Origin: Candidatus Danuiimicrobium aquiferis
GTDB taxonomy: Bacteria > Omnitrophota > Omnitrophia > Omnitrophales > Danuiimicrobiaceae
DNA: 64,000 nt
Assembly (NCBI GenBank): GCA_001804285.1
Contig: MHFR01000008.1
Location: 2,740 to 66,739, forward strand
Direction of reading: 5' to 3'
The position numbers were made by a program, and so were the translations under genes. Below the pieces are notes generated by a model. It was not told the DNA's origin, did no database searches, and worked only from the letters and a program-made list of their open reading frames with translations. This document shows positions 2,851 to 60,945 of this stretch, one piece after another. Within the stretch, counting starts at the first letter, position 1. Every line of letters starts with the position of its first letter.

Positions 2851-2882
2851 TTTAAATTGTACGATCGCAAAAAACCCGCAGG

Positions 2883-4484: not shown

Positions 4485-4524
4485 AGATATTTCATTAACG
4501 GCAAATTTTTCAAGAGATGAAGAC

Positions 4525-5346: not shown

Positions 5347-5357
5347 TCACCGTTGTT

Positions 5358-6651
5358 TTATTTTCTTATGTCAATGGGAACGTAATCGGTTCGTTCCGGT
5401 CCCACATAAATTTGCCGGGGACGGCCGATTTTAGCCGGTTTCGACTCGCGCATTTCTTTCCAATGCGTAATCCATCCGGGCAGCCGCCCGATCGCAAACA
5501 TCACCGGAAACATATTGGTAGGAATCCCAATCGCTTTCAGCACAATCCCGCTATAGAAATCCACATTGGGATATAGATTACGCTTAATAAAATATTCTTC
5601 TCTCAGCGCCCGCTCTTCCAGTTTCATCGCAATTTCAAGAAGCGGATCCGTTCCTTTATGCTTCCGCAAAATCTTATGGCAGTACTCTTTAATAATTTTA
5701 GCTCTTGGATCATAGGTTTTGTAAATCCTGTGTCCAAAACCGGATAGCCGTTTCGACGAATTCGGAATCATTGCCTCGCTCAAATATGAATCAATGTTGC
5801 CGCCCGCTTGATGAATTTCTTCTAACATTTCCATCACATCCTGATTCGCTCCGCCGTGGATCGGTCCTGACAGCGCGGAAATTCCGGCGGCAATCGAAGC
5901 ATAAATATTGGCACGTGCACTGCCGACGAGGCGCACCGTTGACGTGCTGCAATTTTGCTCGTGGTCGGCATGGAGAATAAACAAAATATTGAGCGCCCGC
6001 TCCGCGTCCACATCGATGTTAAAATCCTCATACGGAAGCGAAAACATCATGTGAAGAAAATTCGCGCAATACTTCAAATCACGGCGCGGATAAATGAACG
6101 GCTGGCCGATCGAACGTTTGTAGGAATATGCGGCAATCGTCCGCACTTTCGCCATCAATTTAATCGCTGTTTGCTTATACACTTCATCGTCTTCAGCGGG
6201 ATCTTTCGGTGTCGGATGAAAACCGGACAGAGCACAGACAACCGACGACAGAATCACCATCGGATGAGTTGTACTTGGAAATCCGTAAAAGAAATGTCTT
6301 ACATCATCATGGAGCGCGGCATTTTCCGTCAATCCGGCCGAAAACCAATTAAGTTCAGCCTCGGTCGGCAGTTGTCCAAACAAAAGCAAATATGCCGTCT
6401 CTATAAACCGCGAATTTTCCGCCAATTGTTCCACCGGAATTCCGCGGTAACGCAGAATCCCTTTTTCTCCGTCGATATAACAAATCGCGCTTTGGCAGGA
6501 TCCTGTATTGCCAAAAGCAGGATCGTATGTAATATACGATGTCTTTGATCTTAACTCGCTCACATCAATTCCGCTGTCGCCTTCCGTCCCGTGAACGACC
6601 GGCAATTCATAGGCCTTCCCGTCAATTTTTAATTCAGCTTTGTCTGCCACA
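5358..6651 (-). CDS. gltA: Citrate synthase.
   Basis: The protein aligns along its length to type II citrate synthase (…GIPVEQLAE…HADHEQNCSTSTVRLVGSA…GFGHRIYK…DPRA…). The ORF track extends the N-terminus to 6788 through a palindromic repeat (translation PHPNPLPEGEGRGEG). A GTG at ~6649 preceded by AGAGG is the more likely start. Confidence 0.88.
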
Positions 6652-6681
6652 ATTATTACCTCTTCGTTAAAAGAATAACAC

Positions 6682-6730
6682 CCCTCACCCCTGCCCTCTC
6701 CCTCAGGGAGAGGGTTAGGGTGAGGGGCAA
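6682..6730. repeat. Palindromic repeat cccctcacccctgccctctccctcagggagagggttagggtgagggg.
   Basis: This is a perfect-ish inverted repeat. A second copy lies at 50395–50440. Confidence 0.7.
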
Positions 6731-6789
6731 ATTTATCTCGATACCATTTAAGGGCGATAATATACAGGAAAACAATTAATTGCGCCAAT

Positions 6790-24800: not shown

Positions 24801-27800
24801 TGAAGAGATGGAATAAATCCAGTACTTAAGGGTACCGCTTGACTTTCTCTGTGTTGCAATAAGAGCGTCTCAATTAATTTCCCGGAGAGGTCATAAACCA
24901 AAAAGGCAAATCCAACATCACCGACCCGGACATCGTGACCTGCCATCGTCCGCGCGTCAACATGTTCTGGAATAATCCGGGCAATCATGAGCGTTTCGCC
25001 GATAAAATTCCGGCCAACCGGAATGTATTCTGAATCCAACCGGACATAGCCATTCTGGTTCACTCGATTTCTCGGCACCTGAACGATTGGAAGCCATGAA
25101 TCATTCCCTGCCTTCCAGCTCTTGCCCTCGAGTGCACTTTGATAGGGATCATTTCCATCTCCTTTCACCATCCGGGTAAAAAACTCTACCACCCAAACAA
25201 TTGGTGCCAGTAAAGAAATCAAAAGGATCAGATGAAGATTCTGGGAGAACGAAACAGCCCGGGCCATAAATGGCCGCTTCTTGTAGAATTTGAGTTCGGG
25301 CTTTAAGAATTGTTTTATTGCTTCTCGGTTTCCCTCTCTCGTCCTTCCCGGTACCGGCTGGAAAATACGAAAAGCCTCCGATTTAGCCGGCAGAAAATGC
25401 TCATCCGTTCTTTCGTAGGATGGATCCATGTCATACTCGCGCTGGGCGACAGCGAGCAACCGGCTGTAATCAAAGGCCCCCTCACGATCGGATGGAAACA
25501 CATACCAGCGCTCCACATTATCCGCGTTGGTGCGGTCATATACGATATAGACATCGTCCAGCCCGGCAACGCCCGTCGCCAGATCAATCCATCGAATCCT
25601 TTTATTTTTCCTAAGCTCACCAAAAGAATAACTTGCTTCGTTCGAACCCGGCATTGCCGCCGATAAAGGAAACATCCAAATCAACGGAACCGATTTGTCA
25701 GCCTTCGTAACGGGAACTTTATAATAAAAATGATCCGCATTTCCATCAATCACGCCTCGCTTGAGCGAAATAAGTTTAATCTCCAAGTCATCCGGCCTGC
25801 GCTCAGAGGATGCGCCCGCACGACTAGTCCGCGCCTCGGCCCTGCGGATGTCATTGCGAGCCAAAGGCGAAGTTCGCCAAAAGGCTCGGCGGAATCCGTC
25901 AGGACGAATCTCGCCGGATTTATGGCGGACAATCCCAGAACTTTGGATTGCCGCGGCACCTCCTTGTACGTCACCTCGCAATGACTTGCCTTTTATGTTA
26001 CGAACTTCGGAGCGGCGGTAAGGCGGGGTTTCTTTAAAGTACACATCTTCCCACAGCCCATGCAATCGTTCCTTTAATCGATCAATACTTGCCTCGACCG
26101 CTTCCGGCAATTCCAGAGCTCTTTCTTCCACTTCCGCTGCGTTTTGCCATCGTTCCAGGTAATCCGCAATGGCAGAGATGAAATGCACACCGAAGTACTC
26201 CACAATGCTCCGTTCTCTCAAAATGTTTTCTTTATTAGGCGCAATCTTCCGCGGCTCCAGGTTTTCAATGACCCGCCTCGCGGTACTTAGAAAAACAAGA
26301 GCCTTGGGTTTCATTGCAATCAGACTGTCTGTTGAGGCTGCGCGCCGCATGTCGGCCACAAGTAATCTTAAATATTTGCCCGGATCTCCGAATTTTCCCC
26401 ACTGGATACGGTGCTCTGCGAGCAATTTCCCGCTTGATCGCGCAAAACCTTGATTCCTCAGTAATGGCTCCAGCATCAAACTTAAGCTTTGCACGTTTGC
26501 AAACGTTATCTCGTCCAATTGATCTACCCACTCAAATCTTCGCGCTAATTCTTTTTCTTCTGCAACGGCGCGACCGCTTTCCTCATCGTTAAAACCACTA
26601 AACCGGCGGTCGTAAGGACTTGGAATCCCTATCCCTTCATGCAGATGAGCCGGTGTCCGGACTGGCACCTTTTCACCGGACTTTGGCACGTGGGCTTTTT
26701 CTCTTTTTCTGCGCTTTATGCGTTTTTCGCCCTTCGCAACCATTTCAAAACGAGCCCGTCGTCCGGAAACTCTCGTTCGCAACATTTGCACAGCCTTTCC
26801 ATAAATATCCGCGAGATCTTCGGGGACATCTTCCTCCTTTTCCTCCAATTGAGGAACAATAATGGCATCCAAATAACTTTGCACCTCCGCCAGCGGACAG
26901 TTTAAGGCCCGGAAACCTTCCTCAATTTGCTCATGCAAATCTTCCGGCATCCCTTGACTCAGCATTTCCGTTAATACCCGTTCTTGTTCATAGGTCAAAT
27001 ACGTCACACCAATTTGCTGCTCAATTCTCGTTTCTAAATCGGAAACTTCAGTCAGATACATTGCCACTTCTGCCGCCCGCTTCATCTCTTCGGTCGTACC
27101 AATTTGTTGTTCGATCGCCTGTTTAACAACTTCGCGTATCATGGTCGTCCGCAGAAGATCTGCGAAATCCTTTTCGGTTGGCACATGTTCGGCAAGCGTC
27201 CGCCTCAAACCCTGCATGGCTGCACCCATTAAAATCGCCGCGGGCTGACGGGGCTTCGAACTGGGGGGAAACGCTAAACTGCGTATAAAAATATCCGAAA
27301 CTTTAAGCACCAGCGACAAATACTCATCGACAAATTCCTCCGGCATGTAATACCGCATCAATTCGGGATGCTGAGGAAGAATCTCTCTCCGCTTAAACCC
27401 GCCTCGTCGTAGCTTCAGTTTCGGATGATTAAAAACGCTCATCAAAATTTTGACATAGCTTCTCCCGAATAGATACGCAGTCGGCCCTCTGATCGCACCG
27501 TCCATCCCTAAGATTGAAAAATCAACCGATCTCATCCGGTAAATGTTGCTTCGCAAATTCTCAATCTGTTTTTCTGTCAGGCTGTCAATATCGGCGTACC
27601 GCGCCATTAACCGCGGACGTTTTCGTGTCAGTTGAAATCGGACGGATTCAAGAATCTGTTTTTCGGCAGTTTTCCCTTCAGAAGCCGTCCAAACGAGGCC
27701 AAATCCCAAACGGGTTAACTTCAATTTCGGAAAAGCGGCAATCAGAGTGTCTATGTAACTCCCGTTAAAATGGGGAACCACTTCCTTGCTTAAGACGGCT

Positions 27801-30800
27801 CTTCTCTCCCAAAGCTCAAAATGGCCATGTTGTAATTTATAAATCTCCTCGCTTAAACTTTCGATCTGTTCCGGTGTGGGAGAGTCTCCAAGCTCTAAAT
27901 ACTTTTTCCAAAGATGAGGTGCGTGGCGGGCAATCGCCTGCTGAACGGATTTAACCGAACTTTCGTACGTTGACCAATCCGGTTCAAATCCTAAAGGACT
28001 CAGGTTTAATTTCGGGAAAAGGTTAATCAGCACTTCCGCGAAACCGCCTTTAAACCATTGATTGGTCCCGTAAACAAGCCCCATTGCATTCCAGAGATCC
28101 CGATTGATGTCATAAACTTCGTTTTTTAACAACTCGACACTTTCGGGAATTAATTGGTCGATCTGATCATAACGATCCATTACGCTTGTCATGTCTTTTC
28201 TCAAGCGATAACGGATGGTTTCCAAAGTACCTTCCTTAGATGACCAATCGGGCTGGAATTCGAGCGGATTGAGATGTAATTGTTTGAAAAGAGCCTCAAG
28301 CGCCAACGCATACCGGCCCTCGTACCAGCGATTCGTCCCATGCGACAATCCCCAATAATCCCAAAGATGTGAATTAATTTCATAAATTTCCCGTTTCAAA
28401 GTTGCGATTCTCTCCGGCGAAAGCCGCTTGAAATTGTCGTAGTCCCTAATTAAATGCGGCTCCTTTTTCGCAATAACATAACGAAACGATTTTAGCGTCC
28501 TCGCTTTCGTCGACATATCCAGCTCAAATTCCAAAGGATTGAGTTTCAGTTTCGGAAAAGCAAGGAATAGCGCGTTAACGTAACTTCCCTCAAACCAGGG
28601 AACCGTCTCACGGTTCCCAATGCCCTCAAGCCCCAATAAAAGGAAGTGAGCATTCCTGATTTTGTAAAACTTTCTCCTGAGTATCTCCACGGCATCCGTC
28701 GAAAGCTGATCGATATTTTCATAATCGCGAAGCAACTTAGGATGATGGCGGCGAAACGCATCGACCACATTGGCAATGGCCAAATCCCGGTTTGGTTTCC
28801 TTTCTTCCAAGGGGTGATACGGCGGCTTCAGATGCTCTTTTTTATAACGATCACGGTCTGCCTGATTCAAATTCAAGCGCGGATGGTCAAAAAGAAGCCG
28901 GGCTGCCGGGAAAGCATGCCCGCCCGAATAGTCCTGAGTCAGAGCTCCCTGAAGTCCCCACGCTACAAAATGCCGATTCGTCAGTGCATAAATACGATTC
29001 CTCAATTCTTCAATCTCCGCCTCACCCAATTTTTCAATTCTGTCGAAAAGAGCGATTAATTGAGGAGCTTCTTTTTTCAGAGCGTAATAGAGCGAAACGC
29101 GAGCGTTCTTTTCATCAGACCAATCCAATAAGAATCCGAGCGGGTTGAGATTGAGTTTGGGAAACACGGCTTGAAGGGCTTTGACGGGATCCCCGTCAAA
29201 CCACCGCTTCGTTCCGGTCATCAGCTTCCAAACCTCCCAAATTTTTCCCGTCAACCGGTAAATGTCTTCGCTCAAATTCTCTATTTCGGCCGGACTCAAA
29301 CGGTCGATGCGTTCATATGTCCGCATCCAATGCGGTTTCTCCCGCCAAAGCACCTGTCGCATCGATTCAAGCGTTGCTTCTCTGGACGATATATCCAATC
29401 CCGATTTGCTACGCACCGCGGCTGACTCGAATTCCTTTTTTGTAAGCTTGATTTGGGGAAACAACTCGCGCAAAGCCACGGTATGGTCGCTGCCAAACCA
29501 GCGGTCGGATCCTTCCGCAAGTCCCCACAATTGCCAAACTCGCGGTTTGATTTCATAAATCTCTTGTGCCAACGCCTCGCGTTCGGCGGCACCCAATTGG
29601 TCCCAACGGCTGTAAGTTTCGATCAGATGAGGTTTCTCCACCATGATCTGGTACCGAAAAGATTCCAGCGCCATTTCCTTCGTTGAAAAATCTAAACCAA
29701 AACCGAGCGGGTTAAGCTTGAGTTTCGGGAAAATATCTGTCAACGCCTTTACAAAACTCCCCTCATAAAAGGGAACCAATTCCCGGTTTTCGACAAAACC
29801 AATGCCCCACAAAGTGAAATGCACTTTTCTTAACCGGTAGAATTTATTTCTTAACAAAGTCGCTTCAGCGGGCGAGAGGCGATCAATCTTTTCATAATCC
29901 TCAAGCAAATCAGGGCGGAATTCCTTCATCGCTTCAATAACAGCACCGGTCACAGCCTCTCGGCTTGGCGGCTCCGCTTTAGACCATTCATACTCCCCCA
30001 ACGGATGCTCTTTTCTGTATCTCTCATAACCTTCCCGAGTCAGCTTCAATCTGGGATCACCAAAGAAAAATTTTAAGGATAGGAACGTACTCCCTTTGAT
30101 ATAGTCCCGATGCAAAATACCGGAGGAGCCCCATAATTCGATGTGCCCCCTCGTAATGGCGTAAATTCGATCACGCAAATCGCCGATCTGATCCTCTCCG
30201 AGCTTATCGATTCGGTCATAATCCCGAATGATATCCGGAATTTCCCGTTCAAAAACAAAACGCATAGACCTCGTTGCCTCTTCGCGGGTATCCCACGTCA
30301 GGCCAAACTCCAGAGGATTAAATTCCAATTTTGAAAAAAACGCGATCAAGGCTTGAATATGACTTCTATCGAACCACCGGTCAATCCCGCCGCCCAATCC
30401 CCAAATTCTGAGGAGAGCGCTTTCCAGTTCACAAATTCGCTCCCGCAAGTCTTGTTTCTGTCCCTCTTTTAAATTTACAATGTTGTCATAATCTTTCATT
30501 AGCTCGGGCATTTCACGCTCAAACACATAGCGAAAGTATTCAAACGTCTTCGCCTTTGTACTGATATCCGATTCAAAATCATAAGGGCCGAATTTAATCT
30601 TCGGAAATAATTTGATCAACGGATCAAAGTACCGCTTAAAATGAAACGGCCGGTGAGCATCTGAAATCGCTCCCAAACCCCACGACTTCATGTGCTTATG
30701 CATAATTTGCGTAATGTCGTGCCTTAACTCTTCTTTTCCTTCCGCGGTTAATGCCTCGTAATGTTCATAGCGATGGATGATGGACGGCCGTTTGACGGAT

Positions 30801-33800
30801 AAGATAAAATGTAAGGACGCTAATGCCTGCTTTTCGTTCGACAAATCTAAACCGAACCCCAATGGATTCAAGTCGATATCGTCAAACACCGCCATGAGCG
30901 CGACGGCCGGATCCATGTTGAAATACTTCTTCCGCCGCGGAAGAAGCGCATTCGCCAAACCCAAAACTTTGAAATGGCCAACTCCCGCTGTCCCTTTGCC
31001 GATTTTGTAAATCTCCTGCCTGACCGCTTCTCGTTCCGCTTCCGAAAGCTGTTTCCTCCGCTGATATTGCTTCATTAAAAGCGGAAACTCACGTTCAAGC
31101 CGGTGCCGAATCGACCGGCTCGCCTTGGTACGCGTTGTCCAATCTGGTTTGAAGCCATACGGGCTGAGGTGCAATTTCGGAAACGCCGTTATTAATGCTT
31201 TCTTATAATTTCCTTCAAGTGCCGGAACAGCTTTGCGTTGAACAAATGAGGTCAGCGGGGGTTTTCTGAAATAGTCTGAGCTAATGTCATAAATTTCATT
31301 TTTAAGACTCGCTATTGCTTCCTCATTCTCCAGTTGATCAAGGCGCTCATACCGTTCGACCATATCGGGAAATACCTGAGACAATGCGAAGCGGAGAGAT
31401 TCTTCAAGTTGATTTTCCAAATCCAAATGAAAACCAAGCGGATTCAGCTTCAGGTCGGAGAAAACAGCCATTAACACCTTTGCGTACTTGCCGTCAAAAT
31501 AAGAAACGGTGTTCTTATTGAGAACACCCGCAAGCCCCCAAACGCCAAAATGTTCGCTGTTAATTTTATAAATGTCGTCTTTTAATTCCCTCAGCTCATC
31601 TTCGGTTAATTCTCCGCGACGGTCATACCGTTCCATGATCGTTGGAATTTTTCGCCGCAATCTAAACTGGATTGCTTCCATCGTTTCTTCATACGATAAA
31701 TTAGGGCCAAAACCGACCGCATAGAAACCGAGCGGATTAAGTTTTAGATCGGGAAACGCCGCGACCAGCGCACTCTTGTGGGAACCTTCAAAGTACGGTG
31801 CTTTATCGACCAGGAGGGCTTGCTGCATCCCGGGCCAGCTTTCGAATTCCTGGCGCTGGATTTCGTAAATGTCATCTTCCAAAATCATCCTTTGATACGG
31901 TGTCAGTAGATTCAGTTTTTTGTAACGTTTCATAATATCCGGTCTCACCCGTTCAATGGCATGCTGGACATTCTTAATTCCCTGCGCCATTGTCGTTCCC
32001 AACCACTGATACGGTTGAGTCTGTCCACCTTTTGTCCTTTTATATTTTTCCCCCCGCACCTCGGAGCGATGCCTCAATGCATCGCCCGAAGCAGTCTCGG
32101 ATTTAACCGAAATCCGAGGCAGCTCGGCCCTCGATACACGCCTTTTGAAACGTATCGAGGACTCTCGTGCGCTTTCTATTGATAAACGCTTTAAACTATC
32201 TTCATCGTTGCGCACCTCGGAGCGGGCCGGACGTTTGGATTTTTTATCCGCAGCCGTTTTTTCGGCTTGTCTCACCCGAACGGCACGGCGGCGATGGAAT
32301 TCCAAAGCCACCGTCAAACCTGCAAAGGTAGCCACCCCAAAACCGACACCTGTCACAATCCGGCCCCACGAACGCCCGCATTTTTTTTCAGGCGGAGCAA
32401 TTCGTTCAAATTCGCCCCTCACCCAATCCGGTTGGCTTTCCAAATGATCACCGACCAAAGTTTCCAAAATTTCCGCGTTTGGTTTGCGCCGTTCTTCATC
32501 CGCTGTGTAATTGGGTGAGTTGGCAATATCAACCGCTTTGATTTGATTCCCAAATCGATCGGAAAACTTACCGATCTGCCCGATCAGTTGCGCATGCCGC
32601 GCCTCTTCTTGTGGCGATCGGTTAACAAGATAATGCGGCTGATTTCCTGTCGGCACATGAAGATTATTGGGTTCTACTGTGCCGGCAAAATCAGCATCCG
32701 CTGTGAGATAAATCTGCGCATCGCCAATCACTTTTGCAATGGCATCCAAATTGTCCGGATCCAAAATGTGGAGTGTGACCTTTCTTATATCCGCAAGCTC
32801 AATGGTATCGAGTTCCGATCCCGTAGGAGGGTTCTTATCCGGATTGGGTTTTATCAAAATTTTACCTTGTGCGGAACGTCCGATCTCTACGTAATAGTCT
32901 CTGTAAGAATAACGATACTTTTTGCTCGCCGTTATGAATGCCTCTTTTGGGACAACCCAGGCAATTTCTATCGGCTGATTTCCATCATCAAGAGTTCCGT
33001 GAGCAATAAGTAACCGTAGCCATTCGCCTTCGTCGATGTTGCTTGCCGTAACAATATCCAATTCGTCATTGTCCTTAACTCTTTCCAAACGCTCCTCAAT
33101 CCCGGCCATTTCCGTTCTTGGTGCATCCAGATTCGCCATATCATTATGAGCGTCCCAGGTGACCACTATTTTTTTCCGGCCCGGCTGAAAGATTTTTGGA
33201 TTTTTAAAATCTCTGGCCATATGCGCAAAACTCATATTATGCCCTTGGGCATACCGAATGGGAGCACCTGCTTTCGTTCTGGCCGGTTGCTGAAACAATT
33301 GATTATGAATTTCAAGTTCTTTGAAGATGGGGGCCGCTTGCACCTGCCATCTTAAATATTGACTCATTTCCGAATTCAGATCGACATGCGGCCCAGGCGT
33401 CCCGAACGGCTGAAACCAGGTTTGAAATTTTCCGTACATATACCACACCAACAATTCATTTCTCCACGCACCTTGCTCATCGCGAATGAAAGTTACTGAT
33501 TTGTGCATTTGCTTGAAAACGGTAAAATAGGTTTTAAGAAACTCGTTTTTTGAAACCGCTGGTTCCAAAGCCTGGTGCAAATCTGTTTCATATAAAAACT
33601 TGACCGCCCCATACCAGTCACTCATATCAAGCGCGTGAACAAAATTCTTCCAATGGATGTACTCGCTATGGCCCTCTCCGATTTGAACGCCCCCGGCACG
33701 AACCAACGATTCAATAAATTGGCCAATCGGTTTTCTTTCTTGGCGCATCCGCTCTCCGTAAGATTTGTGCTCTTCAGTAAGCTCCTCCGCGCTTTTCAAC

Positions 33801-36800
33801 ATATGTTCCTTCCCCCGCATGAACGAAAAGTACACGATGGGAGAAAAAATCATTGCTGCCGCGGCGGCCAGCGCACCAAGTAATCCTCTGCGAGAAATTC
33901 CTGTTTTAAACGAATAGGCGATTGCTTCCTGCTCTTCACGCTTCAATCCTTTTATGCTTGTCCCCTGCAAAGCCATTTCGAATTGTTGCCGAGTTTTGAA
34001 AGGACGCTTCGCGAGAATCCACTGAGCCAATCGATCTTTCACTGATTGATCCAACAAATTTAATTGAGGGATGGCATCCACGTACCGCCGAAGCAGTTCC
34101 GGCTTCATTAGATTCACATTCGGTTTTTTAACTCGCCCAGTGCCTTCTGAAACTTGCTTTTCTTCCCCTTGCCGAACTTCGGACATCGCAACGGTTGGTT
34201 GCGAAAAAGTTGTCGCCTCAGCCAAAGGCTGATCCGCCCCTGGCGGAGAAGCAGTCCTTAACTCCGCTCGAGGTAAGGGCACTTCGGCCCTGGCAGCGGC
34301 AGTCTTTTGCTCGCGCCACAACTGCCAGGACACTTCGGCCCTTGGCAAAACACTTTGCCCACGCCAAGAACTCTCGTCCGTCGCAATTGATAACTGGTTG
34401 GAACTACCTTTATGGTTACGTACTTCGGAGCGGAAGAAGCGGTTGCTCCATGTCTGCGTTCGAGCCTCCTTGGGCTGTGTCATCCACTGCCAGGTCCTAC
34501 GAATTCCTTCCGCCGGCGTTACAAAATCATTTGGATCGAGACCAAGAATTGCCTTCATACGTCTCGTATCCATAAGCAAGCGAGGAATTTCTTTTGATGC
34601 AGTATCGAGGATGAGCGCGGCATCAGAACCCGAAGCATCAATAATCGCCTGCGCAACTTCTTTGTCCGAATAGCGCCTTCGCGCGCCGACATTGATTACT
34701 CTCTGATCTCTCAACTGATCCAAAGACGAAACAGCTGCGCGTACAAATGCACGTGCAACATCATCAACGTACGTTAGATTCTTTCTAACCGGTGAATATT
34801 TCAGCTCTGCCGCGCCATGGGCAACTTGATAAAGATACCGATGAACTAAACGGCGGTTCAAATCCGTTCTTGCGGAATCATAGGCTGGTCCGTAAACATT
34901 GCCAAGACGAAGCGAAACACCATTTTCATATTGATTAATGATTCTTTCGCAAATGCTCTTGGCGAGGGCATCCAACTTGGTTGCGTACTTTCCTGGCGGA
35001 GGGCGCGTGCTGAGAAAATCGCGTATTTCCTCCAATGTTTTCTTCTGATCCGCAGCAGAGGAAAGTCCAATAAAAAACTGAACCATTGTCTGAACCCAAG
35101 TTTCAAGTTTGGGTTCTAACTTTAATCCAGTTTCCTTAAGCAAACGTTTCCCTTTTAAATCCATAAGATCATACACGCGCATAGTGGAAGCAAAAACGAT
35201 ACGAGGCTTATGCGAGCTTTCCTGCGCTGTTTTGACAAAAATTGCCGCGGGGAGAACATTCCTATACATAAACTCGGAAATGTCCGCATCTTTCGCGCCC
35301 GCAGCGCCCCACATGGCCAAATGGAAAATGACGTCATTTTGATTCACCAACGCCCGCTGTAAATGAATGTCTGGGAGAGTCCCGACCTCAATTCCGGCCT
35401 TATCCTGATAATCAAAGCGATAGCCACTGAATGGTGCAAACTCTTCCTTTAACAGAACAGGCGTGGTTCGCTTCGCCATCGGCAATACCATATCCATCAA
35501 TACCGAACCAATGTTTCCTCCTGCGCCGGTGATCACAACTTTCTTATCGCGCAGCTCGGACATCGCAACGGTTGGTTGCGATGCCGAAGCAGTCCTTAAC
35601 TCCGCTCGAGTTAAGGGCACTTCGGCCCGTTTAAAACTTTCCATTGATAACTGGTTGGGACTACTTTTATTGAGGCGAACTTCGGCACGCATAACGGTTT
35701 CTCGTTTCAGTAGCCGCTGAACACCTTCGGCCAGCATAATAGATTTAATCAGCATACCGGCCGAAGAAATAACCGGGAACCCGTAACGCTCTGAAGCCAA
35801 CAGTATCCGATTGATTTTGGGAAACATACTTTCGCCACGGCGATGAAAACGCAAAATAGACGCTATCTCGGCTTTAAGACCAATCACGTCAGGATGAGAA
35901 GTCTCCGTGTCAACGGCATACCTTTCAACAAAAGCAAATATATCCCGAACGATATCGGTATAGGGTGTACGGATAATGAAACCATCCGCTTCTGCGGTAT
36001 AAACCATCCGGTCAACCATCAGGTAAGGCTGTTTATATTGCCATTTCGCTGGAGGATTCGACAATAAAGAAGTAATATCTGCTTTAAGTTTCTCTTCATT
36101 ATAATTTGAAGCGGTTTCTCCATGTTTCGTAAGCTCACCAACAATATCGTCAACCACTTCTGTTGTCTCTTTATTCTCGAGCTCCTTGAGAATCGCATTG
36201 ACCGCTTCATCAAAATCTTTGGTGCTGTCATAAGTTTCTCCCTGTAGCACCATCTTCACAAAATCTGATTTGAGGTCAAATGCTGTTTTGTCTGTTTGAG
36301 TGTCAGCCCATTGCACGAGGTTGATTAATCGCGAATTAAATTTCGGATTGGATGCGGATTTTTCAATTAAAAATTCAGAAAACTTATCACGCACTAACGC
36401 CTTTTGTTGATCATTAGAGGAATAGCGTCTGCTCCTCGATCGATACCAATCGGTTTGCCTATACTGGTCTATAAATTCTTTGAAAGCAGTCTCAATAAAA
36501 ACGATAAGCGCTTCATCGTCATCCGTCAACTGAGGCTTTTTAGTTTGAGCGTGAGATTCTCCTGCGGATTTCTGTATAAAATTCGGATCACGCTTATCAA
36601 CCCATGGGAAATAGAACCTAAATAAGAAAAATCGTAAAATCTTCACAACGAACGGAATCGACAGCAGGCAACCAACGAGCCACAAGCCAAAACGAGAAAG
36701 TGGCTTTTTCCCATGCTGGAGGATTCTGACGCCAACGCTCACCAAATCCCGCCTCAGACTACCCGATAAATATCCAACTTGCCCAAAGTCAAAAAGTGAA

Positions 36801-39800
36801 ATCATCCCTGTTAATTCTTCCCCAAAAATATTGCCGGGATGCGGATCTGAATGGAAAACCCCATCTGCAAGTGCCGCTAAGACAATGAGCAAAATCAATC
36901 TTCTGGCCGTTCTCCTCCGCAATAAAGGATTTTTCAACTCAGTGGCTTTAATACCTTTAACAAAACTCATTTCTAAAACATTCTCATTGCTTCCGTAAAT
37001 GGCGGGCTTACTGAATCCATCCGGATAGTGTCGAACGAGCTGTCTTGCCTGTTTGGCTTCGACATTCATATTAAGTTCGCGACGGACCGCTTTTTCAAAT
37101 TCCTCAAAAAACCGGGAAGGCGACATTTGAATAGCATCAGCTCCGGTAAATTTCTCCTTCGAGTTTTCCAGTGTCTTAATCACCTCTCTGATTTTTTCTA
37201 AACCGCTTAGGATTTTTCTTTTTTTTGCAGCAGGTACGACTTTCAAAACAACTTCTTGCCCATCGTGAGTTTTCGCAAGAAATGTGTCTGCCACCGTTCC
37301 GACTTTTAATCTTTTTAAATAAGGCATTTCGATTGCCGCACCCTCGATGGGCACCAACGCTTCGACAAGCGGTTTCCCATAGTAATTTTCAACGGAACGG
37401 ACTATCTCCCCCATTTCAGCGGGCGTCCCTTGATCTTGAAAAACCTCAAACGCCTCACGCATTCCTTCCGGCACCAAGCCTTCCCTCGTACTTAAAAACT
37501 GTCCCACCTTTTCAATTCCCGCAATTCTGAAAAATTCCGCATACGGTTGGGCGGCATGCCATTCCAGAAACCGGTCTTGAAGATCTTTTCCGTTTCTATC
37601 GAAAAGAAACAGTTGAAATCCATTTAAGTCCTTTGAGTATGAACTTCCGTCAAATTCACTCAAAAAATCTTGCTTGTTGGTCTCTGCGAAATATCTCCTT
37701 GCCTGCTGATAAAAATAAGTTTGGTCCTGGGAAGGATTCTTTCCATGATATTCCCCAAATGTGTTTAATATTTTTTCCTGATCACCCGCCGATAATCTTG
37801 AAAAGAACTCCCGTAATAAAAACTGCGCCAATTGAGGCAATGATTTAAGATGTTCTGAAAATCGGGCTATTTTCTCCATATCGGGCGGTTTGGCTGTGAA
37901 AACCCAATGCGCAGCATCCTCTTCTTCAATGTGCGGTGTTTGCATCCGACCCGCCAAGTAGCCGTCAACGCTGTAAGGACTAACTCCCAAAGGCAGGGTA
38001 CGGGCCGATGATTGAGGCGCTGAATCGGCAAAAATGGTCTTAACCCGCCCTGTGAATCCGGTCCTGCTGGCAATATAGCCCTCAACCGAGTGAGGTGACA
38101 AAGAAACGACGTCAACTTTTCGAACCTGTGGAACACGGCCCAAACTTTTCAAAACTGCTTCTGCGTTGGATAGATCATTCGGCGTGTTTAAATCAAGCAG
38201 GCCGTTTTCCTCTTTCACTTCATACATTCTTAACAAGTCCGTTCCCATAAAGAAACGGAAAAGAAAACCCGTTCTTACAATTGCGAAACGATTCAACTTT
38301 TTCGTTTTTTCATAATAAGCACGGCTGGATAGCGTATCTTTATGGACAGGGCCTTTAAACCATTGGATTAATTTAAATATAAATCTGACGAGTTTAAAAA
38401 CAAATGGGTGAAATAAATGAATACTGGCAGCAACTTCATGAATATTTTCCAGTTCATCGGCAGTTAAGTAACTGCCATCTGAAAGCTTGAGGCTTCCACC
38501 TTGCTCTTTTAAAAGGTCAATCTCCCGTTGTGTTGCGATTGTGTCAAATCTTCCGTTTCTTAATCGAACGATGCGGTCTACTCCATGCGGCTGAGTAAGA
38601 TGAGTGGTTACAAAGGTATAAAGCGCGGGCCAGCCACGCGGCGGTGAATGAATATGCATGGCATCAAAAATAATTTTCGGATTCGTAATGATCACATCTG
38701 CCGGCACGATCAATATGTGCTTGGACCTAAATTGATCTTGATATAAATCATACGGGGTAAATGCGGCATTCAGAGTACCAATATTGACCGGCACGACGGT
38801 GCTATGCGTCTGTTTTGCTGCTTCACTCACTCGAGAATCCGCTTGCGGATGCTCACCATTCAATACGGACACAAAAGATGTCAATCCGATTTCATCTGCT
38901 GTATCCAAAAAATACCGCATAAGCGGCTTCCCTGCCACATTTCTAATTTGTTTCGGCGTGGTATCCCCATCTGAAAACATCCGGCCGCTCGTTCCAGCAG
39001 CTAATTGAATTGCAACCCAAGAACTTAATTGATCTTTTCTGTCATTTTGTTCGCTCAATTTCTGAAAATCATAATGATGGACATCAAGAACAAAACGATA
39101 ATCAGGGATGAAAGGCGTAAACAGTGATGCTATCCGATTAGGAACAAGTAGGTGCGCTAATATCCATGCCACAAACCAATTCTTTTGATCAATCCGCGTA
39201 CTTCGAAGCAAGTGTTGCTGTCTGGCTTTATTAATGTCCTGTGCAACAAAAAGAGTTTTGGCTGCCCTTACCTTTTCGAAGAGAAATTTTGAAAATGTTC
39301 CTTCAATGATGATCATGGTATTCGGTTTTAGTGATTCGGAATTGATCATGTCTTTATTTAGGGCTTGCGAGAAGGATTGAATCTTTTCTTCATCAACATA
39401 ACAATTCGCAAGATAATGGATGAGTATTTTTTTCACGGTTTTACTTGGAATAACGGAAGCAAACAAACTGAAGGCAAAACCAAATAAAATCTGAAATACT
39501 AATTTAAATCCCCATGCCCGTGTTCGAGAAAAATCGCTCGTTTTGACCAGAATTACTTCACGCCCTCTTTGTTTTAAGAATGCCTGATATTCTTTGGCAA
39601 ATGTTGATTTCCCAACGCCAGGGACGCCATCTATCACAAGAATGAGATTCCGTTCTTTATCCTTCAAGAGTGAGGATGTTAATTTCTCAAACACTTGAAT
39701 ACGTTCAGAAACTGTTCCCACAGCGGCAGAAGATTCATTCCGTAGCTCGGAGCGAGGATTCATTTCCTCCTCGCCTGGAGCAGTCATTGACTTAACCAAA

Positions 39801-42800
39801 GTCAAGGGCATTTCGGCACGTCCGCCTTCGGCGGGAGTTTCGTTGCGCACTTCGGCCCTCGCAAAAGACTGCGAGGACACTCCCGCGCCGCGATCAATCA
39901 TCGACTTGGCACTATTTTCAATGTCGCGAGCTTCGGCCCTTGCAGCGGCATCATCTGGTCTTCGCCGCAACTGCAAGGACTCTTGTGCGTTTGGATCGCC
40001 CAAAACGGGGACAGGTTCTGATTTCACTGATACAGAACCTGTCCCCGTCTTTGGCGTGAAGTTGCGCACTTCTGACCGTCCTTGATTCAAATTTGAAATG
40101 AGTTTTTCGACACGCGGACGAACGGCTGACCAATTTGCATCGGCTTGAATCAAGTCGAGTAAATATCTGATTCGCGCTTCGACCTGACTGCTCACACGGG
40201 TCAAATACGGAATGTGATATTCGATTAATGAATTCACGAGCGCTTCGTTTTCTGAACGCACAAGACTGCGAACGAGAAGCGCAACAGCATCATAAGGATT
40301 ACCTTGATGGAATGGTTGTTCCTGATTGATCCAGCGCGTCACGTCCTTTGCTTGAATTTGATCAAGCTCACCCGGAACAACAAACCCGGCAATCATCAAT
40401 TCATCCGCCGGATCGTTATAACGCGTCATCCTGCGCGCACGGTTAATCGCAGCCGCCGCTTCAAGCGTTAGCAACTCACCGATCGGCACTTTAAAAAGCA
40501 TCTGCCGGTAAAGCTCAATATAATTTTTCGTTCGATTCAGCCAGCGATTATCCTGAATCAGCACTTGATACCGAATTTCACGTTCCGCCGCAGGATGATC
40601 TGCAAAAACCGTATAATGTTCGCGAGCCGATTTGAACCACTCAACGGGATTAAACAATTGAAACGCTTCAGCAAAATGAATATCGCCTTTATTAAAAGTA
40701 ATGGCACTGTCTTTCAGACCGTCCCGCCACGTTAAATGCCGAGGGACGCCGTACGCCGCAGCTTCTTGATTGCTGAGTCCGCCCGGTTCGAACGAAGACG
40801 GCATTCCGAACCGATCGGACCCCGAATAAATCAGTTCATAAAACGGTTCACTCGGTTCCACACGTCTGCCGATGTATCGAAATTGATTCGGAAAGCGAGC
40901 AGCGATATCGCCAAAACCTTGATCGTAAAACCTCCCTTTGTCCACAGCGCCGGCAATCACAAACTGTAAATCCGGATTCAATACCATGGCAACCTCAGCA
41001 GCCCGAAGTGCCCCCCGTTGATTTGTCCACGCATAGTCTTGAAGCTTTTTTTGCTCTTGGGCAGTAAGTTCATGGGCAATCCCCATTTCTTCAAAAAATC
41101 CTCCCGCTGTCCGCAAAATACCGGACTGATCGCCGCCGCGCCAAATTTCTGCCAGCAATAATTGATGCCCTTTTTGATCTCCGATCCGGTGCAGCATCGA
41201 ATAAACAAACTTTTCGCGATTCGTTTCTAACCCCACGGCCGCTTGAAGCCTTGCTTTTTGCAAGGGTTGGATGAACTCCGTAACCATGGCCGCAAGTTTT
41301 CTGCGTTCGGAGTCGTGCCCGATTTCCTGAAAACTGCGGATTGCCAGGTCCGGACGCGCCAGCACTTGCTCCAGCCAGTCCCGGTACTCAGGCCAGTCCT
41401 TATTCCATTCGTGATCATTCATTTTCTCGCGAATGGAATCTTGCACGCTAACCATGTTGAAGAAAGTTATCTTAAGTAATTGTTCGCGGCGGCTGAGAAT
41501 CGCATGTTTTTTTTGCCGATATTCGTCCGCACTTTTGGCTTGAATGTCTGAAATCTTACCGAAGGCGTCGTTCGGTTTTAAGATACGGTGGATTTCGCCG
41601 TAACGGTCATCATTTTCAATCACATTCTTAAGCGCCGCGAAAACGGCTGACGGGTTATCAAGCACGCACCGAATTAAATTCTCAAAACTTGTAAATGTTC
41701 TTTTCATCGCCGGCATTTTCATTATCTTTTTCATTTTGCGCCTGAGGTCGTGATTTTCGGAAAACATTTTTTTCATAAACGTCCGCTGACGCCCCACTAA
41801 ATCGAAGCCGTTCGGTGTGCCGTCATACGCACCCTTCTTTTTTGTCCCCGTCTCCGGATCAACAACTTCCTCTTCATTCCTTTGATTGAGCAGCGCGACT
41901 AAGTCCCCAAACTCTCTCGTGTACAGATCCACTAAACTTCGATCGTGATAGCCGCCGCTGACGGTTCTGAAATGGGCCGCTGTTTTAACTGCCGTATAGG
42001 CCGGATTAATGACATTCCACTCGCCAATATTCACTAAAATATCCCAGTCGGCGGACGGCCACATACCCAGATCGCTTACGATCATCGCATCACGTTCGGC
42101 TTCGTTATCCGCCGTTATACGGCCCTGATAAGCCCAATGGAGACTATGCCCGGTCGAAAGTACTTTCGTTCTATTCAAGTGCGGATCATGTTTCAATCCG
42201 GTCAAACCCGGATCGATGCGATCTCTCCCGTCAAGATATGCTTTCACGTAAGCGGTCGCCCAATCATTTGTATGAATGACGCCGGCGTGAATATTCATCT
42301 CGCGAATCGCAAGAAGCGTCCCCAAAGAAAGCATCCGTGCAAACCGGAGTTTGAAATTTTTCTTCCCGTCATACGCACTCGTGTCTCCTACTCTCAGGCG
42401 ATTGAAATAGCGGTCGTTTTCCAAATAAAGAACGCGGACTCCCTCGATATACGCTTCATAAATTTTCATTTCGGCGGATTCTTCCCCGTGTGCGCCGAAT
42501 TTCACCGTCACCGCTCGGCCGGTATCTTGCGGATGATATTTTGCAAACATCGTATGCTTTTCATTCCAGAACATCGGAACAACAACCGTCACCGGAATTC
42601 CTAATCGTGCAAGCTCTTTCGCCTGATCGCTGACATAAAAGCCAAGACCGCCGCTGCTGACGCTCCAATCCGATTCCGGAGAAGATAAAACGACCTCTCC
42701 GATATCATGTCCTCTCAATATCTGAATCGCATGAAATGACGCGTGCGGCGTAGCAGACCTGGTTTCCTCCGCAAATCGGACAGCAATGTCGATCAACATT

Positions 42801-45800
42801 TTGTGAATTCGCTCTTCAAACTCTTTACGATAAATCACAACATCATGAAATAAACTCGTCAGATCCCCGATCCGGATATCCGGATTCTTCACGACCAAAT
42901 CAGACAGCATATGGAATAATGACCCGAAAACAGCCGGATTGCTCCCGTTGATTTCAAGCGCCCGCGTAAGTTCACGCGAAGCGAAACTGCTCTCGAACCG
43001 GCCCTGAGAACCATATTTTTTGTAGCGGAGAAGCGAGTCTCTCAGGAGTTGCTGATACGCGGCGTTTCCAAATTTCGGAATCGTTTTACTTTTCCGGAAG
43101 AAACGAAGCGCCTTCGTCTCAAAAATATCGAGTGGCTTCCGAAGTCCCAAACCGAGGTTAGCTATTTCCCTCCCCGTAAACTGCATCCTTCGGATTCGTC
43201 GACTCTTGGCGCCAGAAGAAGGAATTTCGCGTAATTCATACACCGCGTCATCATCAAACAGGCCGAGCCCTTTTCCGTTCTGCATCGCGTCATCCGGATG
43301 AAAATTAATATCCGCCGCATAACGGGATCCTTGATGTGAAAGAAATAGAAAAAACTGATCGTCTTCAATCGGCTGGGCGATTCCTAAAACGCGGTCATGT
43401 CCGGCATCAAACGCAATCGGCCGATGAGATTCGAAAGCAGCTTCCAAATCCGGAACCCGCTTCGCTAACTTATCAAAATGCTCCTCATACCACGAAAGCG
43501 CGGTTTGTCCACCGGTTCTTACTTCAGACCGGGACATCGAACCTTCGGTCCCGCGGTGGTCCTCTTTTAAATACATCGTAATAAAAACAATTTTTCCGCT
43601 GACGCGCTCATTAACGCGATCTCCCGTCCTCCTGACAAGCCCTTCGTAATCAGCTACTTCGACATTTATGAATTCGGTTGCGTCGCCATAATTTTTCAAA
43701 TACCGAAGGAGTGATTGAACAACCGCTGCATATTCGGCAGGTGGAAAGGAGAACCAGCGCAATTCGTCTAAATCAGGGTGGCTCCATCCAGCTCCACGAT
43801 CATAATGAATCGAAAACGCGTTGATTCCGTGCGAATTATTTCTGTTTTCTGTCATTAAAACCCGTCTCAACTCTTCCATGCTGAGAACCCGCCCCACATG
43901 CAAAGACTCCACGTTATTGACTTCGCGTATCCCTCCTGTTTGAAGGCGGAGAAGCCCGGGCTGATGAGACGCCCATTCCGGCTGGCCACTCAACGCCCTC
44001 GCTTCGGCCCTTAACGCCGATTCATTCGGCGTTGTGAAGGGACGAGCTGTACTCGCAGCAACCTTCTCGTCAATACGAGGCTGCGAGTGCGCTTCGGCTC
44101 TCGCTTCATGAGACACGAGACGCGAAACAGGAGACACGTTTTCACTTACCGCTTGTCTCATGTCTCTTTCCCCTTCTATGCGCACCTCAGCCCTCGCTAA
44201 AGAGTCATCACCCGCAGACAGCCCATGAACTTCAATCGCCGGACCATCCGAAATTAAGTCTGTTTTTCCCAATTCGGTCAAAACACTCTGGATGACCGCT
44301 CGAATTTCACTCCGGTGATATTCGGCATCTTGGAGACCAATTTTTTCGCGCATCACATTCAGCGGAATACGCGCCGGACTTGACTGCGGAATATGCGAAG
44401 TGGCCGGCTCAAAGCTTGGCTTTAACAACATCCGTTCGTCATAGATAGTTTGCGGAACAATAGAATGAATTTTCGGAGAAACAGTGAGAAACGGAACGGA
44501 TCGGCGCTTCATCATAGCTTCAAATCCATCCGTATGAAAACCGCCGGTAACCAAGATTGATTTTGCATGCTTTCTTTGATGCCTGGCCCTGAGATAATTG
44601 CGAAACATCATTTTTTCCCGCTGAAATGCAAGCGTGTAGAAGCGGAGGCATTCGGTAAAGAGCGCGTTGAACTGATCATCATTGAAATTCGCACTCTTGC
44701 TATCCCCGCCCAGCTCCTCTGTCATTCCCGCGAAGGCGGGAATCCAGCTGGATCCCCGCTTACGCGGGGATGACAACCGTTCCATCATCACATCCGGCAT
44801 CAACTCTTCTTTTCTTTTCACCACGCTTTGAAACTCGTCCCGTGTTAATTCGAGAGCAAAAAGAGATTTCAGCAATTGATAATCGTCGATCGTTTTGACA
44901 AACGCCCGCTCTTTTTCGTTCGTAGTCAATGCATTTAAAATTTCATCCGTCAGCTTTTTAGTTTCTTCGTGAATTTTATTCGCATCAAGTTCTTCGGCAA
45001 GTACCCGCCCAGACCAATAATGAACCATGCGGGGATAGGATGAAAAAGCAAAACCCTTATTTGCCGCTTCCAAATAAAAAGATTCCAGAAGTGCACGGGT
45101 ATTTGTCAACTGTCCTTCGTCCCCGGGCTTCTGAGAATTTCGTTTAAAAAGATATTCATACCGGGTTATCCAGCTTCCTAAATCGTGCTTTCTGATCCAG
45201 TCACTCAGCTGCGTCTCTTCCTTTTGATATTCAACTTCCGGAATCTTCCGGGATTCTTTTTCTAAATCCTGCATCGTAAAATACCGCACAAGCTGCGGAT
45301 GTGTGATTTGATGTTTGGCTTCATGCAAATCCAAATCTATAAATTTCGCGGCCGACCTCCCCAAAAACTCCAGGTAAGAGGCGAACTCGGCGGAATCATT
45401 TCGGTAACTTACATATTCGCGCACAAATTCCCTCAGGTTTGAATTAAGCGCGGTTGCCTCAACATTCTTTAATTGTTCTGCCACGCTCGCCAAATATTGC
45501 TCTGCGTTTTTCTTTTGCTCGTATACTTTTCTGAAACTGAATAAGTTTTCCCGGTAAAGATCCGCGTCTTCAAGCCCATAAAGCTTGACACTCCCCTTTT
45601 GCTGCAGGTGAAATAATTCAACCCCGCCGATTTCTCCGATTTCCAGTAACCGTTCGGCGACTTTTTTATTCAGCGAATCGTCTTTAAAAAAACGGAGCAA
45701 GTCGGGAGAAATTTCACCGGCGAGACCGCCTTCCAGAAAAATCGTGTCAAAGCCATACTCGCTTTTCAGGTGAGACAGTAAATTTCCGATATTTTTCTGC

Positions 45801-60124: not shown

Positions 60125-60511
60125 TTATTTCAATCGAATTTTTCTTCGAACGAATTCGCGGATTTCTTTCAAAGCCTTGATTGCACCCATAGCATCACGC
60201 CGCATTGCCCGTTCACCCGGATATCTAAATTCAACCGAGTACGGATTTAAAGAAATGATCAGGTCCGAAACCAACTCAAAATCTCCGTCTTCATCGGAAC
60301 AAAGATTTTTTAGAAGAATTAAATCGTGGGTTTTGGGAAAGGAAATCTTTTCACGGGATAGATAAGCTTTTAAATATTTTTCTACGGACTGCTGACTGTG
60401 GAAGCAAATAGAACTGAAAAGATGTTTCCGTTTCGTTTGCGACAAAATAATCGCTGCACAATAGTCTTCTTCCGCTTTTTCGCGCCATTCTCTCGCAATT
60501 TCACTGCTCAT
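60125..60511 (-). CDS. HEPN-domain protein (toxin of a HEPN/MNT pair).
   Basis: The protein is 128 aa, with a C-terminal …EFRYPGE… (Rx4–6H-like region). It overlaps the upstream MNT gene by 11 nt. Confidence 0.65.
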   Translation of the reverse strand: MSSEIAREWREKAEEDYCAAIILSQTKRKHLFSSICFHSQQSVEKYLKAYLSREKISFPKTHDLILLKNLCSDEDGDFELVSDLIISLNPYSVEFRYPGERAMRRDAMGAIKALKEIREFVRRKIRLK

Positions 60512-60842: not shown

Positions 60843-60945
60843 ATCCCGCCTTTTGCCTGAATGGCGCTATTATAATCAAATTCCTGAAAAAGTTAACTTC
60901 CTTTTCCGGTGCTATTCATGGCACCACGAGAACCGGTACCACAAG

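Follow-up and report, generated by a model that had tools for sequence, protein, structure and literature searches.

The DNA analysed here (the window) is a stretch of 64,000 nucleotides (nt) from Candidatus Danuiimicrobium aquiferis (Omnitrophota; contig MHFR01000008.1, positions 2,740 to 66,739 of the forward strand). On its minus strand lies a giant gene for a protein of 13,076 amino acids (aa), in which residues ~1127-1869 are best read as the core of a divergent, probably active glycosyltransferase (GT) of family GT5, set in a self-contained module; an alpha-1,4-glucan and a nucleoside diphosphate glucose (NDP-glucose) would be its most likely substrates, and the nearby gene for a GH57 branching enzyme would be an accidental neighbour. 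On balance we favour this reading, with fair rather than high confidence. In the mechanism proposed, a retaining GT-B core would be the catalytic part of a module that runs from a beta-sandwich resembling glycosidase domain C, through a helical linker and the GT-B core with its two insertions, to a helical tail. This module, which is flanked on both sides by RSEVR-containing linkers within a giant multi-enzyme protein, would bind an alpha-1,4-glucan chain and transfer glucose to it from NDP-glucose; both steps are proposed because of the fold, the conserved residues and the domains fused to the module in its relatives. Its location upstream of a DUF4912-GH57 cassette would be a local accident of gene order and not a conserved pathway. 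The giant gene and the parts of the module are as follows (coordinates are those of the window).

6851..46081 (-), giant gene, one open reading frame (ORF) of 13,076 aa, an Omnitrophota 'Archaeovorin-like' multi-enzyme protein (ORF call)
40082..43459 (-), conserved ~1,150-aa GT5 module, aa 875-2000 (end-to-end homology with stand-alone Omnitrophota proteins; AlphaFold2 model)
42704..43417 (-), pre-GT region: predicted beta-sandwich, aa ~889-998, and helical bundle, aa ~1007-1126 (model confidence, pLDDT, 85.8)
41798..42703 (-), GT5 N-terminal Rossmann half, aa 1127-1428, with SSGGLG (1142), HTNDW (1270), the His of TGHSL (1312) and NGFD (1424) (PF08323, motif alignment)
41336..41797 (-), insertion 1, aa 1429-1582, 154 aa, predicted all-helical, poorly conserved (gap analysis, model)
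40475..41335 (-), inter-domain helix, GT5 C-terminal Rossmann half and returning C-terminal helix, aa 1583-1869 (GlgA model, alignments, Foldseek)
within 40475..41335 (-), motifs of the C half: HRIGDQKG (1631), SFEPGGL (1763) and RDGLKD (1786) (motif alignment)
40982..41155 (-), insertion 2, aa 1643-1700, ~51-58 aa, predicted small beta/alpha excursion (alignment, model, gap analysis)
40082..40474 (-), helical C-terminal extension of the module, aa 1870-2000 (BLASTP, model, gap analysis)

The two halves are predicted to form one GT-B fold of the GT5 type

The region first flagged, nt 40650-42750, corresponds to aa 1111-1811 of the giant protein and had been described as a split glycogen-synthase-like GT. 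Membership of GT5 was judged from Pfam, NCBIfam and fold evidence, used as proxies for CAZy, and the region was aligned with its closest relatives and with three canonical GT5 proteins. Pfam Glyco_transf_5 (PF08323) matched aa 1130-1380 with E=4.7e-20 (72.8 bits, the gathering score being 22.7), and Glycos_transf_1 gave a sub-threshold match to aa 1690-1781 (19.8 vs 26.4 bits); PF08323 and PF00534 are the usual pair in canonical-length GlgA-type matches. The NCBIfam glgA model TIGR02095 aligned collinearly with both halves, the N half on model positions 4-220 and the C half on 305-475 (E=6e-34). At E<=1e-8, a profile search of PDB sequences returned GT5 synthases only; one weaker match, 6kih, came at E=3.6e-5.

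An AlphaFold2 model covering aa 875-2020 reached a mean pLDDT of 84.8 and a pTM of 0.87. When it was searched against the PDB with Foldseek, the top 14 matches were all GT5 synthases (E down to 5e-19, target-normalised template-modelling score (TM) 0.65-0.81), the best being Arabidopsis SS4 (6gne, E=5e-19, TM 0.80), E. coli glycogen synthase (GS; 2qzs, TM 0.81), A. tumefaciens GS, GBSS and P. abyssi GS, all with TM 0.74-0.81; barley SSI was also matched. The alignments span ~750 columns and include both halves, at an identity to solved GT5 structures of 14-16%. GT35 phosphorylases rank after GT5 (TM ~0.44), and a GT35 identity, for which the SGGLG motif and a weak TIGR02094 match (E=1.7e-4) might have spoken, was rejected, the GT5 scores and TM values being far better.

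On the domain models and the structure model, then, the halves do not fall into unrelated families and their motifs do not lie in separate folds; both are predicted to belong to one GT-B fold of the glycogen/starch synthase type (aa 1127-1869), as the initial annotation had supposed. Two details of that annotation change. The feature is real, with a core that reaches ~aa 1869, past the 3′ limit first given; and the C-half signature is right as to SFEPGGL, while the 'GGL-D' part is in fact RDGLKD, i.e. DGL-D.

Layout of the module and its insertions

Insertions were defined by gaps relative to the three canonical GT5 proteins and to two family members, P0007 and P0009. The ~250-aa insertion originally described between the halves is real and its size was roughly right, but it is not a single piece: there are two, one of 154 aa and one of 17+34 aa. 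Insertion 1 comes after the NGFD strand, with which the N half closes, and before the long helix into the C half, and is modelled, at lower confidence (pLDDT 60-80), as successive helices. It is dispensable for the GT fold, judging from the alignments, because it is poorly conserved and aa ~1440-1580 are missing from P0007 and P0009. Insertion 2 comes after the R-x-x-x-Q-K-G strand-helix unit (the beta-alpha unit that opens the C half) and is kept throughout the family.

The beta-sandwich and bundle ahead of the GT are probably a remnant of a glycosidase 'domain C' and a linker. The region is collinear with the end of a GH13-like domain in the Planctomycetota relatives described below; Foldseek of the pre-GT domain alone gave no match at E<=0.001, and weak matches (E 0.03-0.09) to the C-terminal beta-sandwiches of GH36, GH97 and GH13-like proteins, so that the link to GH13 domain C stays one of collinearity.

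Antisense to the N half there is also a 155-aa ORF starting with ATG (42137-42604 (+)), most likely a chance open frame.

Conservation of the active site

Residues are given in E. coli GS numbering, taken from the 2qzs profile-to-PDB alignment read together with the family alignment. The equivalent of Asp137 lies in HTNDW, identical to the canonical H[TL]NDW; that of His161 (the H of TIHN) is the His of TGHSL; those of Arg300 and Lys305 lie in HRIGDQKG; and that of Glu377 is Glu1765, in SFEPGGL. All five catalytic residues of GT5 are accordingly present and conserved family-wide, several active-site positions being invariant in 18-19 sequences from two phyla (Omnitrophota and Planctomycetota), and the NG of NGID is kept as part of NGFD. 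A change from HAHDW to HTNDW was considered as a sign of active-site loss and rejected, canonical GT5 proteins also having H[TL]NDW, with Asp as the conserved residue. On this pattern of residues the divergent module is probably active as an enzyme.

Relatives and fusion partners point to an alpha-glucan

The best relatives of the module are Omnitrophota proteins annotated as 'glycogen/starch synthase', 44-46% identical over the whole query. Stand-alone Omnitrophota homologues of 1,064-1,463 aa align end to end with aa ~875-2000 of the giant (in BLASTP, aa 79-1175 of P0003 lie on aa 891-2000, at 40% identity), which sets the boundaries of the module. They start with signal-peptide-like sequences resembling the N-terminus of the giant, and their genes adjoin genes for surface or secreted proteins (CHU_C/FlgD_ig, an S8 peptidase with beta-helix, Omp85). 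Other long proteins, with lengths from 2,370 to 7,625 aa and above, contain the module too. More distant relatives (25-29% identity over module residues ~4-988) form a conserved protein of ~1,845 aa, with no signal peptide, in the Planctomycetota (loci L016-L044, e.g. L041:7040-12574), among them Phycisphaerae, Pirellulales, Sedimentisphaerales, Anaerohalosphaeraceae and Gimesia. Here an unassigned N-terminal region is followed by a divergent GH13-like domain, recognised by a weak Malt_amylase_C match and collinear weak matches to GH13 structures, then by the beta-sandwich and the insertion-bearing GT5.

Among 19 module-bearing representatives, five carry a GH77 4-alpha-glucanotransferase, two an alpha-amylase domain (PF00128) and one a GT35 phosphorylase. 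In one Omnitrophota protein (L015, 3204-8390) a signal-like N-terminus, GH77 (E=9e-91) and the GT5 module make up a single chain; P0158 is a second Omnitrophota fusion of GH77 with the module, and in L014 PPDK_N and PEP-utilizers domains precede it. Because the module is repeatedly fused to alpha-1,4-glucan enzymes in its relatives, an alpha-glucan is favoured and, by analogy with them, is most likely what it acts on. The alpha-glucan theme of the initial annotation thus gains independent support from the GH77, GH13-like, GT35 and PPDK-like domains to which relatives are fused.

Donor, location and the case for another acceptor

The remaining domains recognised in the giant bear on donor and location.

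45983..46081 (-), signal-peptide-like or signal-anchor segment, aa 1-33: three Lys, hydrophobic aa 13-31, then SYA|QE (sequence, hydrophobicity scan)
39062..39688 (-), P-loop nucleotide-kinase-like segment, aa ~2132-2340, Walker A GVPGVGKST at aa 2152 (Walker A and weak matches)
38462..39016 (-), sugar-1-phosphate nucleotidyltransferase like the N-terminal part of GlmU, aa ~2356-2540 (PDB 2v0h, E=3.6e-7; NCBIfam GlmU)
34472..35539 (-), SDR-type NDP-sugar epimerase/dehydratase, aa ~3515-3870 (Pfam Epimerase, E=2e-14; PDB dTDP-glucose 4,6-dehydratase-related protein, E=1e-5)

Several points weigh against a plain glycogen-synthase activity. The TIGR02095 score of the GT region is 117.5 bits, the cutoff being 328.45, and the glgA equivalog models of NCBIfam give <=109 bits vs cutoffs of 459-870; with scores so far under the cutoff, the region is by sequence a GT5 relative and not a GlgA orthologue. 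The lysine of KTGGL (Lys15 of E. coli GS) is Ser in the giant (SSGGLG) and Gly, Ser, Thr, Pro or Ala in the family, and the position aligned to Tyr355, which we take to stack on adenine, is Pro or Ile. Because both equivalents are replaced, the donor may not be ADP-glucose. Judging from the alignment, loss of the lysine is not disqualifying for GT5, as the canonical-length GT5 match P0013 also has Ser there. The GlmU-like nucleotidyltransferase and the SDR, for their part, suggest modified sugars rather than plain glucose.

Location is a further difficulty, and is the weakest step of the proposed mechanism. By the positive-inside rule the N-terminus is predicted to be an export signal or an N-in anchor. 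A simple Kyte-Doolittle scan finds 11 hydrophobic 19-mers in the giant, and as the next one after the N-terminus comes only at aa 2194, the GT would sit outside the cytoplasm; an exported GT would not meet NDP-sugars. The signal-like starts shared by the giant and the stand-alone homologues, and the surface and secreted-protein genes beside the latter, count on the same side. Published views of Omnitrophota giants place them outside the cell (West-Roberts et al. 2023, bioRxiv 10.1101/2023.11.21.568195) or on the cytoplasmic face (Nielsen & Lui 2026, bioRxiv 10.64898/2026.06.07.730766). The segment at aa 2194-2212, a Phe-rich hydrophobic 19-mer (LVFQILFGFAFSLFASVIP; 39446-39502 (-)), lies within the P-loop segment, ~40 residues past Walker A, which is an odd site for a membrane helix.

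These doubts are the ground for an alternative in which the GT5-fold module would glycosylate a target other than an alpha-glucan, i.e. a surface or prey glycoconjugate or a protein, using an NDP-sugar supplied and modified by the neighbouring nucleotidyltransferase and SDR modules. The replaced Lys and non-aromatic Tyr355 position, the two insertions near the inter-domain cleft, the presence of a GlmU-like nucleotidyltransferase and a dTDP-glucose-dehydratase-like SDR in the same polypeptide, and the surface-protein genes next to the stand-alone homologues would all suit it, and glycosylation of glycoproteins is listed as a possibility by West-Roberts et al. Yet in two phyla the module is fused, time and again, to alpha-glucan enzymes (GH77, GH13, GT35) and not to enzymes of glycoconjugates, and the nucleotidyltransferase and SDR lie in other linker-delimited segments and are not conserved with the module. 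We regard this alternative, which corresponds to the glycoconjugate polymer of the initial annotation, as unlikely, if worth keeping in view.

The supposed sugar supply deserves closer description. The nucleotidyltransferase and the P-loop segment do exist in the giant, as initially annotated: the former is well supported, with an intact LAAGxxGRM...PK motif and GlmU NCBIfam matches that are under cutoffs (best E=5e-12), and the kinase is supported by its Walker A and by weak matches to thymidylate kinase, PSTK and PRK07667. An ABC1 kinase is also present, C-terminal to both. When the giant was compared by BLASTP with 158 retrieved proteins, homology beyond the GT module was limited to the N-terminal ~600 aa and one P0018 segment, so no homologues of the nucleotidyltransferase, kinase, ABC1 or SDR were found in other module-bearing giants, and these domains are not conserved partners of the module; aa 2021-4000 likewise had no tblastn match in 45 related GT-module loci. 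The combination of kinase, nucleotidyltransferase and SDR is, by these comparisons, specific to this giant, and the idea of an activated-sugar supply fused to the GT finds no support, given that the segments are not conserved in other module-bearing giants and are linker-delimited separately from the GT.

The N-terminal head (44162-45982 (-), aa ~10-640), which matches no Pfam or NCBIfam family, is 22-33% identical to the N-termini of 9 other module-bearing giants and of L014.

A linker motif brackets the module

The giant has 37 copies of the motif R-[SA]-E-[VLAI]-R, whereas 500 shuffles gave 0.29 on average and never more than 2 (~130-fold enrichment). The copies always lie in low-complexity linkers and use varied codons, which argues that the motif is selected at the protein level. 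Two copies flank the GT module.

43517..43531 (-), RSEVR linker, aa 851-855, just upstream of the module (motif scan)
40064..40078 (-), RSEVR linker, aa 2002-2006, just downstream of the module (motif scan)

More copies follow at aa 2048, 2075 and 2110, and those at aa 3492 and 3884 bracket the SDR. The motif brackets the GT module in two other giants as well (L014, aa 2141 and 3170; P0015, aa 1673 and 2662), and was found in giants only, none being seen in stand-alone or Planctomycetota homologues. We regard it as a candidate for a delimiter of modules or a processing site.

If it were a processing site, the giant might be a polyprotein that is cut at the linkers to free a ~1,150-aa GT5 enzyme matching the signal-bearing stand-alone homologues; outside the cytoplasm of the producing cell, this enzyme together with the kinase, nucleotidyltransferase and SDR would act in or on a prey or host, on the alpha-glucan (glycogen) of the prey and not on the cell's own store. 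The enriched, giant-only motif, the bracketing of the GT in three giants and the export-signal-like N-termini are compatible with such a scheme, which we nonetheless consider distinctly unlikely.

Near-identical linker copies (GDALRHRSEVRNNK[DE]SSNQSSIETNESPWRVQSVSPRAE[IL]R) recur at aa 7835-7907 and 10055-10133, and also at aa 3884, 8456 and 8770. Strings typical of translated short repeats occur near aa 445 (SSWIPAFAGMTEE) and near aa 9335 (ILSERSESKDL).

The GH57 cassette is probably independent of the module

Three genes lie downstream of the giant gene, in the order initially annotated.

5358..6788 (-), citrate synthase, between the giant gene and the DUF4912-GH57 cassette (Pfam E=4.5e-134)
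4525..5346 (-), DUF4912 gene (Pfam)
2883..4484 (-), GH57 branching enzyme with BE_C domain (PF03065 E=3.1e-37; PF09210 E=7.5e-37)

With a GH57 catalytic domain and a branching-enzyme C-terminal domain, the last of these is a GH57 branching enzyme of the standard type. It had been proposed that the GT and this operon serve one polymer pathway; on that view the GT5 module and the DUF4912-GH57 pair would make up a single dedicated route to glycogen or another alpha-glucan, in which the GT would elongate the chains, GH57 would branch them and the genes would be transcribed together. The genes do share a strand and are separated by short gaps, and from the giant gene to that for citrate synthase no terminator is recognisable; both enzymes are of the alpha-glucan type; and no canonical glgA or glgC was found in the 64-kb window or just beyond. 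A scan for promoters and terminators from the giant gene to GH57 gave nothing above shuffle expectation. Against the proposal, neither GH57 nor DUF4912 occurs within +/-10 kb of the module in any of the 45 related loci, and tblastn of the window's GH57, DUF4912, PDZ and S11 proteins found no match in them; the citrate synthase, whose gene intervenes between the two, had one match, at 30% identity, in L007. The DUF4912-GH57 pair, moreover, recurs in all three other Omnitrophota genomes checked, with unrelated upstream genes and with neither a giant gene nor citrate synthase upstream. The enzyme itself is 57-65% identical to its best 119 matches, whose named sources are mostly Omnitrophota, and branching enzymes of the GH57 type with ~60% identity abound in this phylum and its neighbours. 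A joint pathway is therefore very doubtful. The DUF4912-GH57 pair is an independent syntenic cassette, outside the conserved context of the GT module, and its adjacency to the GT looks coincidental because none of the 45 loci carries it and it recurs without the giant gene; it could still be of consequence here should the genome have no other synthase.

The cassette is part of a larger syntenic block, unrelated to the giant gene, that comprises DUF4912, GH57, an S11 D-Ala-D-Ala carboxypeptidase, the PF10091 'Glycoamylase', Cu-oxidase_4 and EF-P (1457-5346 (-) and past the left edge of the window; L048). Two of the three genomes continue with the S11 peptidase, PF10091, Cu-oxidase_4 and EF-P, just as happens past the left edge. 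In L051 the DUF4912 protein also has a Rho_N domain.

A catalytically dead module or an artefact

A module reduced to a dead pseudo-enzyme, binding glucan or serving as a scaffold, would fit the high divergence (14-16% identity to solved structures), the lost KTGGL lysine and the predicted export signal. It is hard to square, however, with Asp, His, Arg, Lys and Glu, together with NG and QKG, being invariant or nearly so over a family that spans Omnitrophota and Planctomycetota at 25-45% identity, a pattern expected of a working active site; this explanation is highly improbable. No point was found in favour of an error of assembly or reading frame behind the giant ORF or the 'split' GT, and such an error can in practice be dismissed: a stop-free frame of 39 kb is not possible by chance, the same 13,076-aa gene is called on a public contig of 87.8 kb, the genes downstream of it were found again on 9 contigs from several samples, and the insertion-bearing architecture is repeated in independent genomes at 40-45% identity.

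Other features of the giant and of the window

Pfam assigns GT5 clearly in the giant and Methyltransf_25 weakly (24.8 vs 27 bits); glycoside-hydrolase, peptidase and NUDIX domains gave no Pfam match at E<0.01, and self-BLAST found no second GT5 copy. A search of aa 5001-13076 against PDB sequences returned nothing at E<=1e-4, leaving ~8,000 aa with no match there. A long array of tandem repeats of ~95-100 aa, with 28-40% mutual identity and no family assignment, occupies aa ~4696-6250 (27332-31996 (-)). Further internal repeats (41-46% identity) lie at aa ~11720-12170 (9572-10924 (-)) and at aa 10257-10574; these, in the C-terminal third, coincide with a region of many weak helix-turn-helix Pfam matches.

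Elsewhere in the window, a gene at 56277-57962 (-) encodes a response-regulator receiver fused to a beta-ketoacyl synthase (KS; both KS domains E<1e-29), and has histidine kinases, an SDR epimerase and an ICMT-type methyltransferase around it. At 60125-62329 (-) a gene with a HEPN domain stands close to one for a nucleotidyltransferase toxin of the AbiEii type, the two having the look of a toxin-antitoxin or defence islet, and a DUF4143/AAA_14 ATPase gene lies at 62517-63767.

Comparison with known systems

The occurrence of GT5 domains in Omnitrophota giants has already been published, and what is new here is a structural variant, not a new system. According to West-Roberts et al. 2023, glycosyltransferases rank second in frequency among the domain classes of Archaeovorins, and GT5 glycogen-synthase-like domains are their most prevalent type; Nielsen & Lui 2026 count PF08323 in 153 of 916 long Omnitrophota proteins. 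Both give annotation at the level of domains; a search for terms in their main texts found no module boundaries, insertions, residue analysis, stand-alone or Planctomycetota relatives, or RSEVR linkers, and West-Roberts et al. state that information on module boundaries or cleavage points is lacking for the giants. By the same kind of search, a large review of prokaryotic alpha-glucan enzymes mentions no multidomain GH13-GT5 or Planctomycetota GT5 fusion, and neither the preprints nor the review mention GH13- or GH77-fused relatives or a negative synteny result, the review being equally silent on the module definition, the insertions, the residue analysis and the stand-alone relatives.

Giant Omnitrophota proteins are among the longest predicted, and the GT5 module is among their most frequent recognisable parts. 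As a discrete, portable unit of ~1,150 aa with an intact GT5 active site, which also occurs alone, it makes a concrete target for expression and biochemistry. The repeated fusions to alpha-glucan enzymes in two phyla of the Planctomycetes-Verrucomicrobia-Chlamydiae (PVC) group tie at least one activity of the giants to alpha-glucan metabolism, the linker motif supplies candidate module boundaries or cleavage points, and a tempting story of a GH57 'operon' is removed.

As a single ORF of 13,076 aa whose nearest homologues are all from Omnitrophota, and with the closest relatives of both the GT module and the GH57 neighbour annotated as Omnitrophota, the giant agrees in origin and length with the Archaeovorin class (Omnitrophota, a single ORF >= ~7,000 aa). 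It shares with that class the N-terminal and further hydrophobic segments and the GT5 domain, and over its N-terminal ~600 aa it has homology with the N-termini of 9 further giants that bear the module. The published domain set of the class comprises glycosyltransferases, methyltransferases, glycosyl hydrolases, peptidases, S-adenosylmethionine (SAM) methylases and NUDIX hydrolases (West-Roberts et al.); it differs from the giant in the glycoside-hydrolase, peptidase and NUDIX domains, for which Pfam gave no match here at E<0.01. The neighbouring GH57 protein is like a standard GH57+BE_C branching enzyme, and differs in belonging to a conserved block unrelated to the giant gene.

A second comparison concerns architecture alone. 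Fungal alpha-1,3-glucan synthases (Ags1/Mok1) consist of a GH13-like domain, a GT5 domain and a membrane domain. The ~1,850-aa Planctomycetota proteins likewise have a GH13-type domain N-terminal to GT5, and the module of the giant would keep only the beta-sandwich that comes after it; unlike the fungal enzymes, the bacterial proteins have no C-terminal multi-pass membrane domain.

The closest likeness is to the GT5 synthases themselves (2qzs, 1rzu, 6gne, GBSS 3vue and 6gnf), with which the module would share the GT-B fold, a PF08323 N half and a PF00534-type C half, and of which it keeps the equivalents of Asp137, His161, Arg300, Lys305 and Glu377 and the NGID and QKG motifs. It departs from them in its low identity (14-16%), the replaced KTGGL lysine, the 154-aa helical insertion between the halves and the ~55-aa insertion in the C half, and it adds a pre-domain of ~250 aa and a helical tail of ~130 aa, the whole embedded in a protein of 13,076 aa with a signal-like N-terminus.

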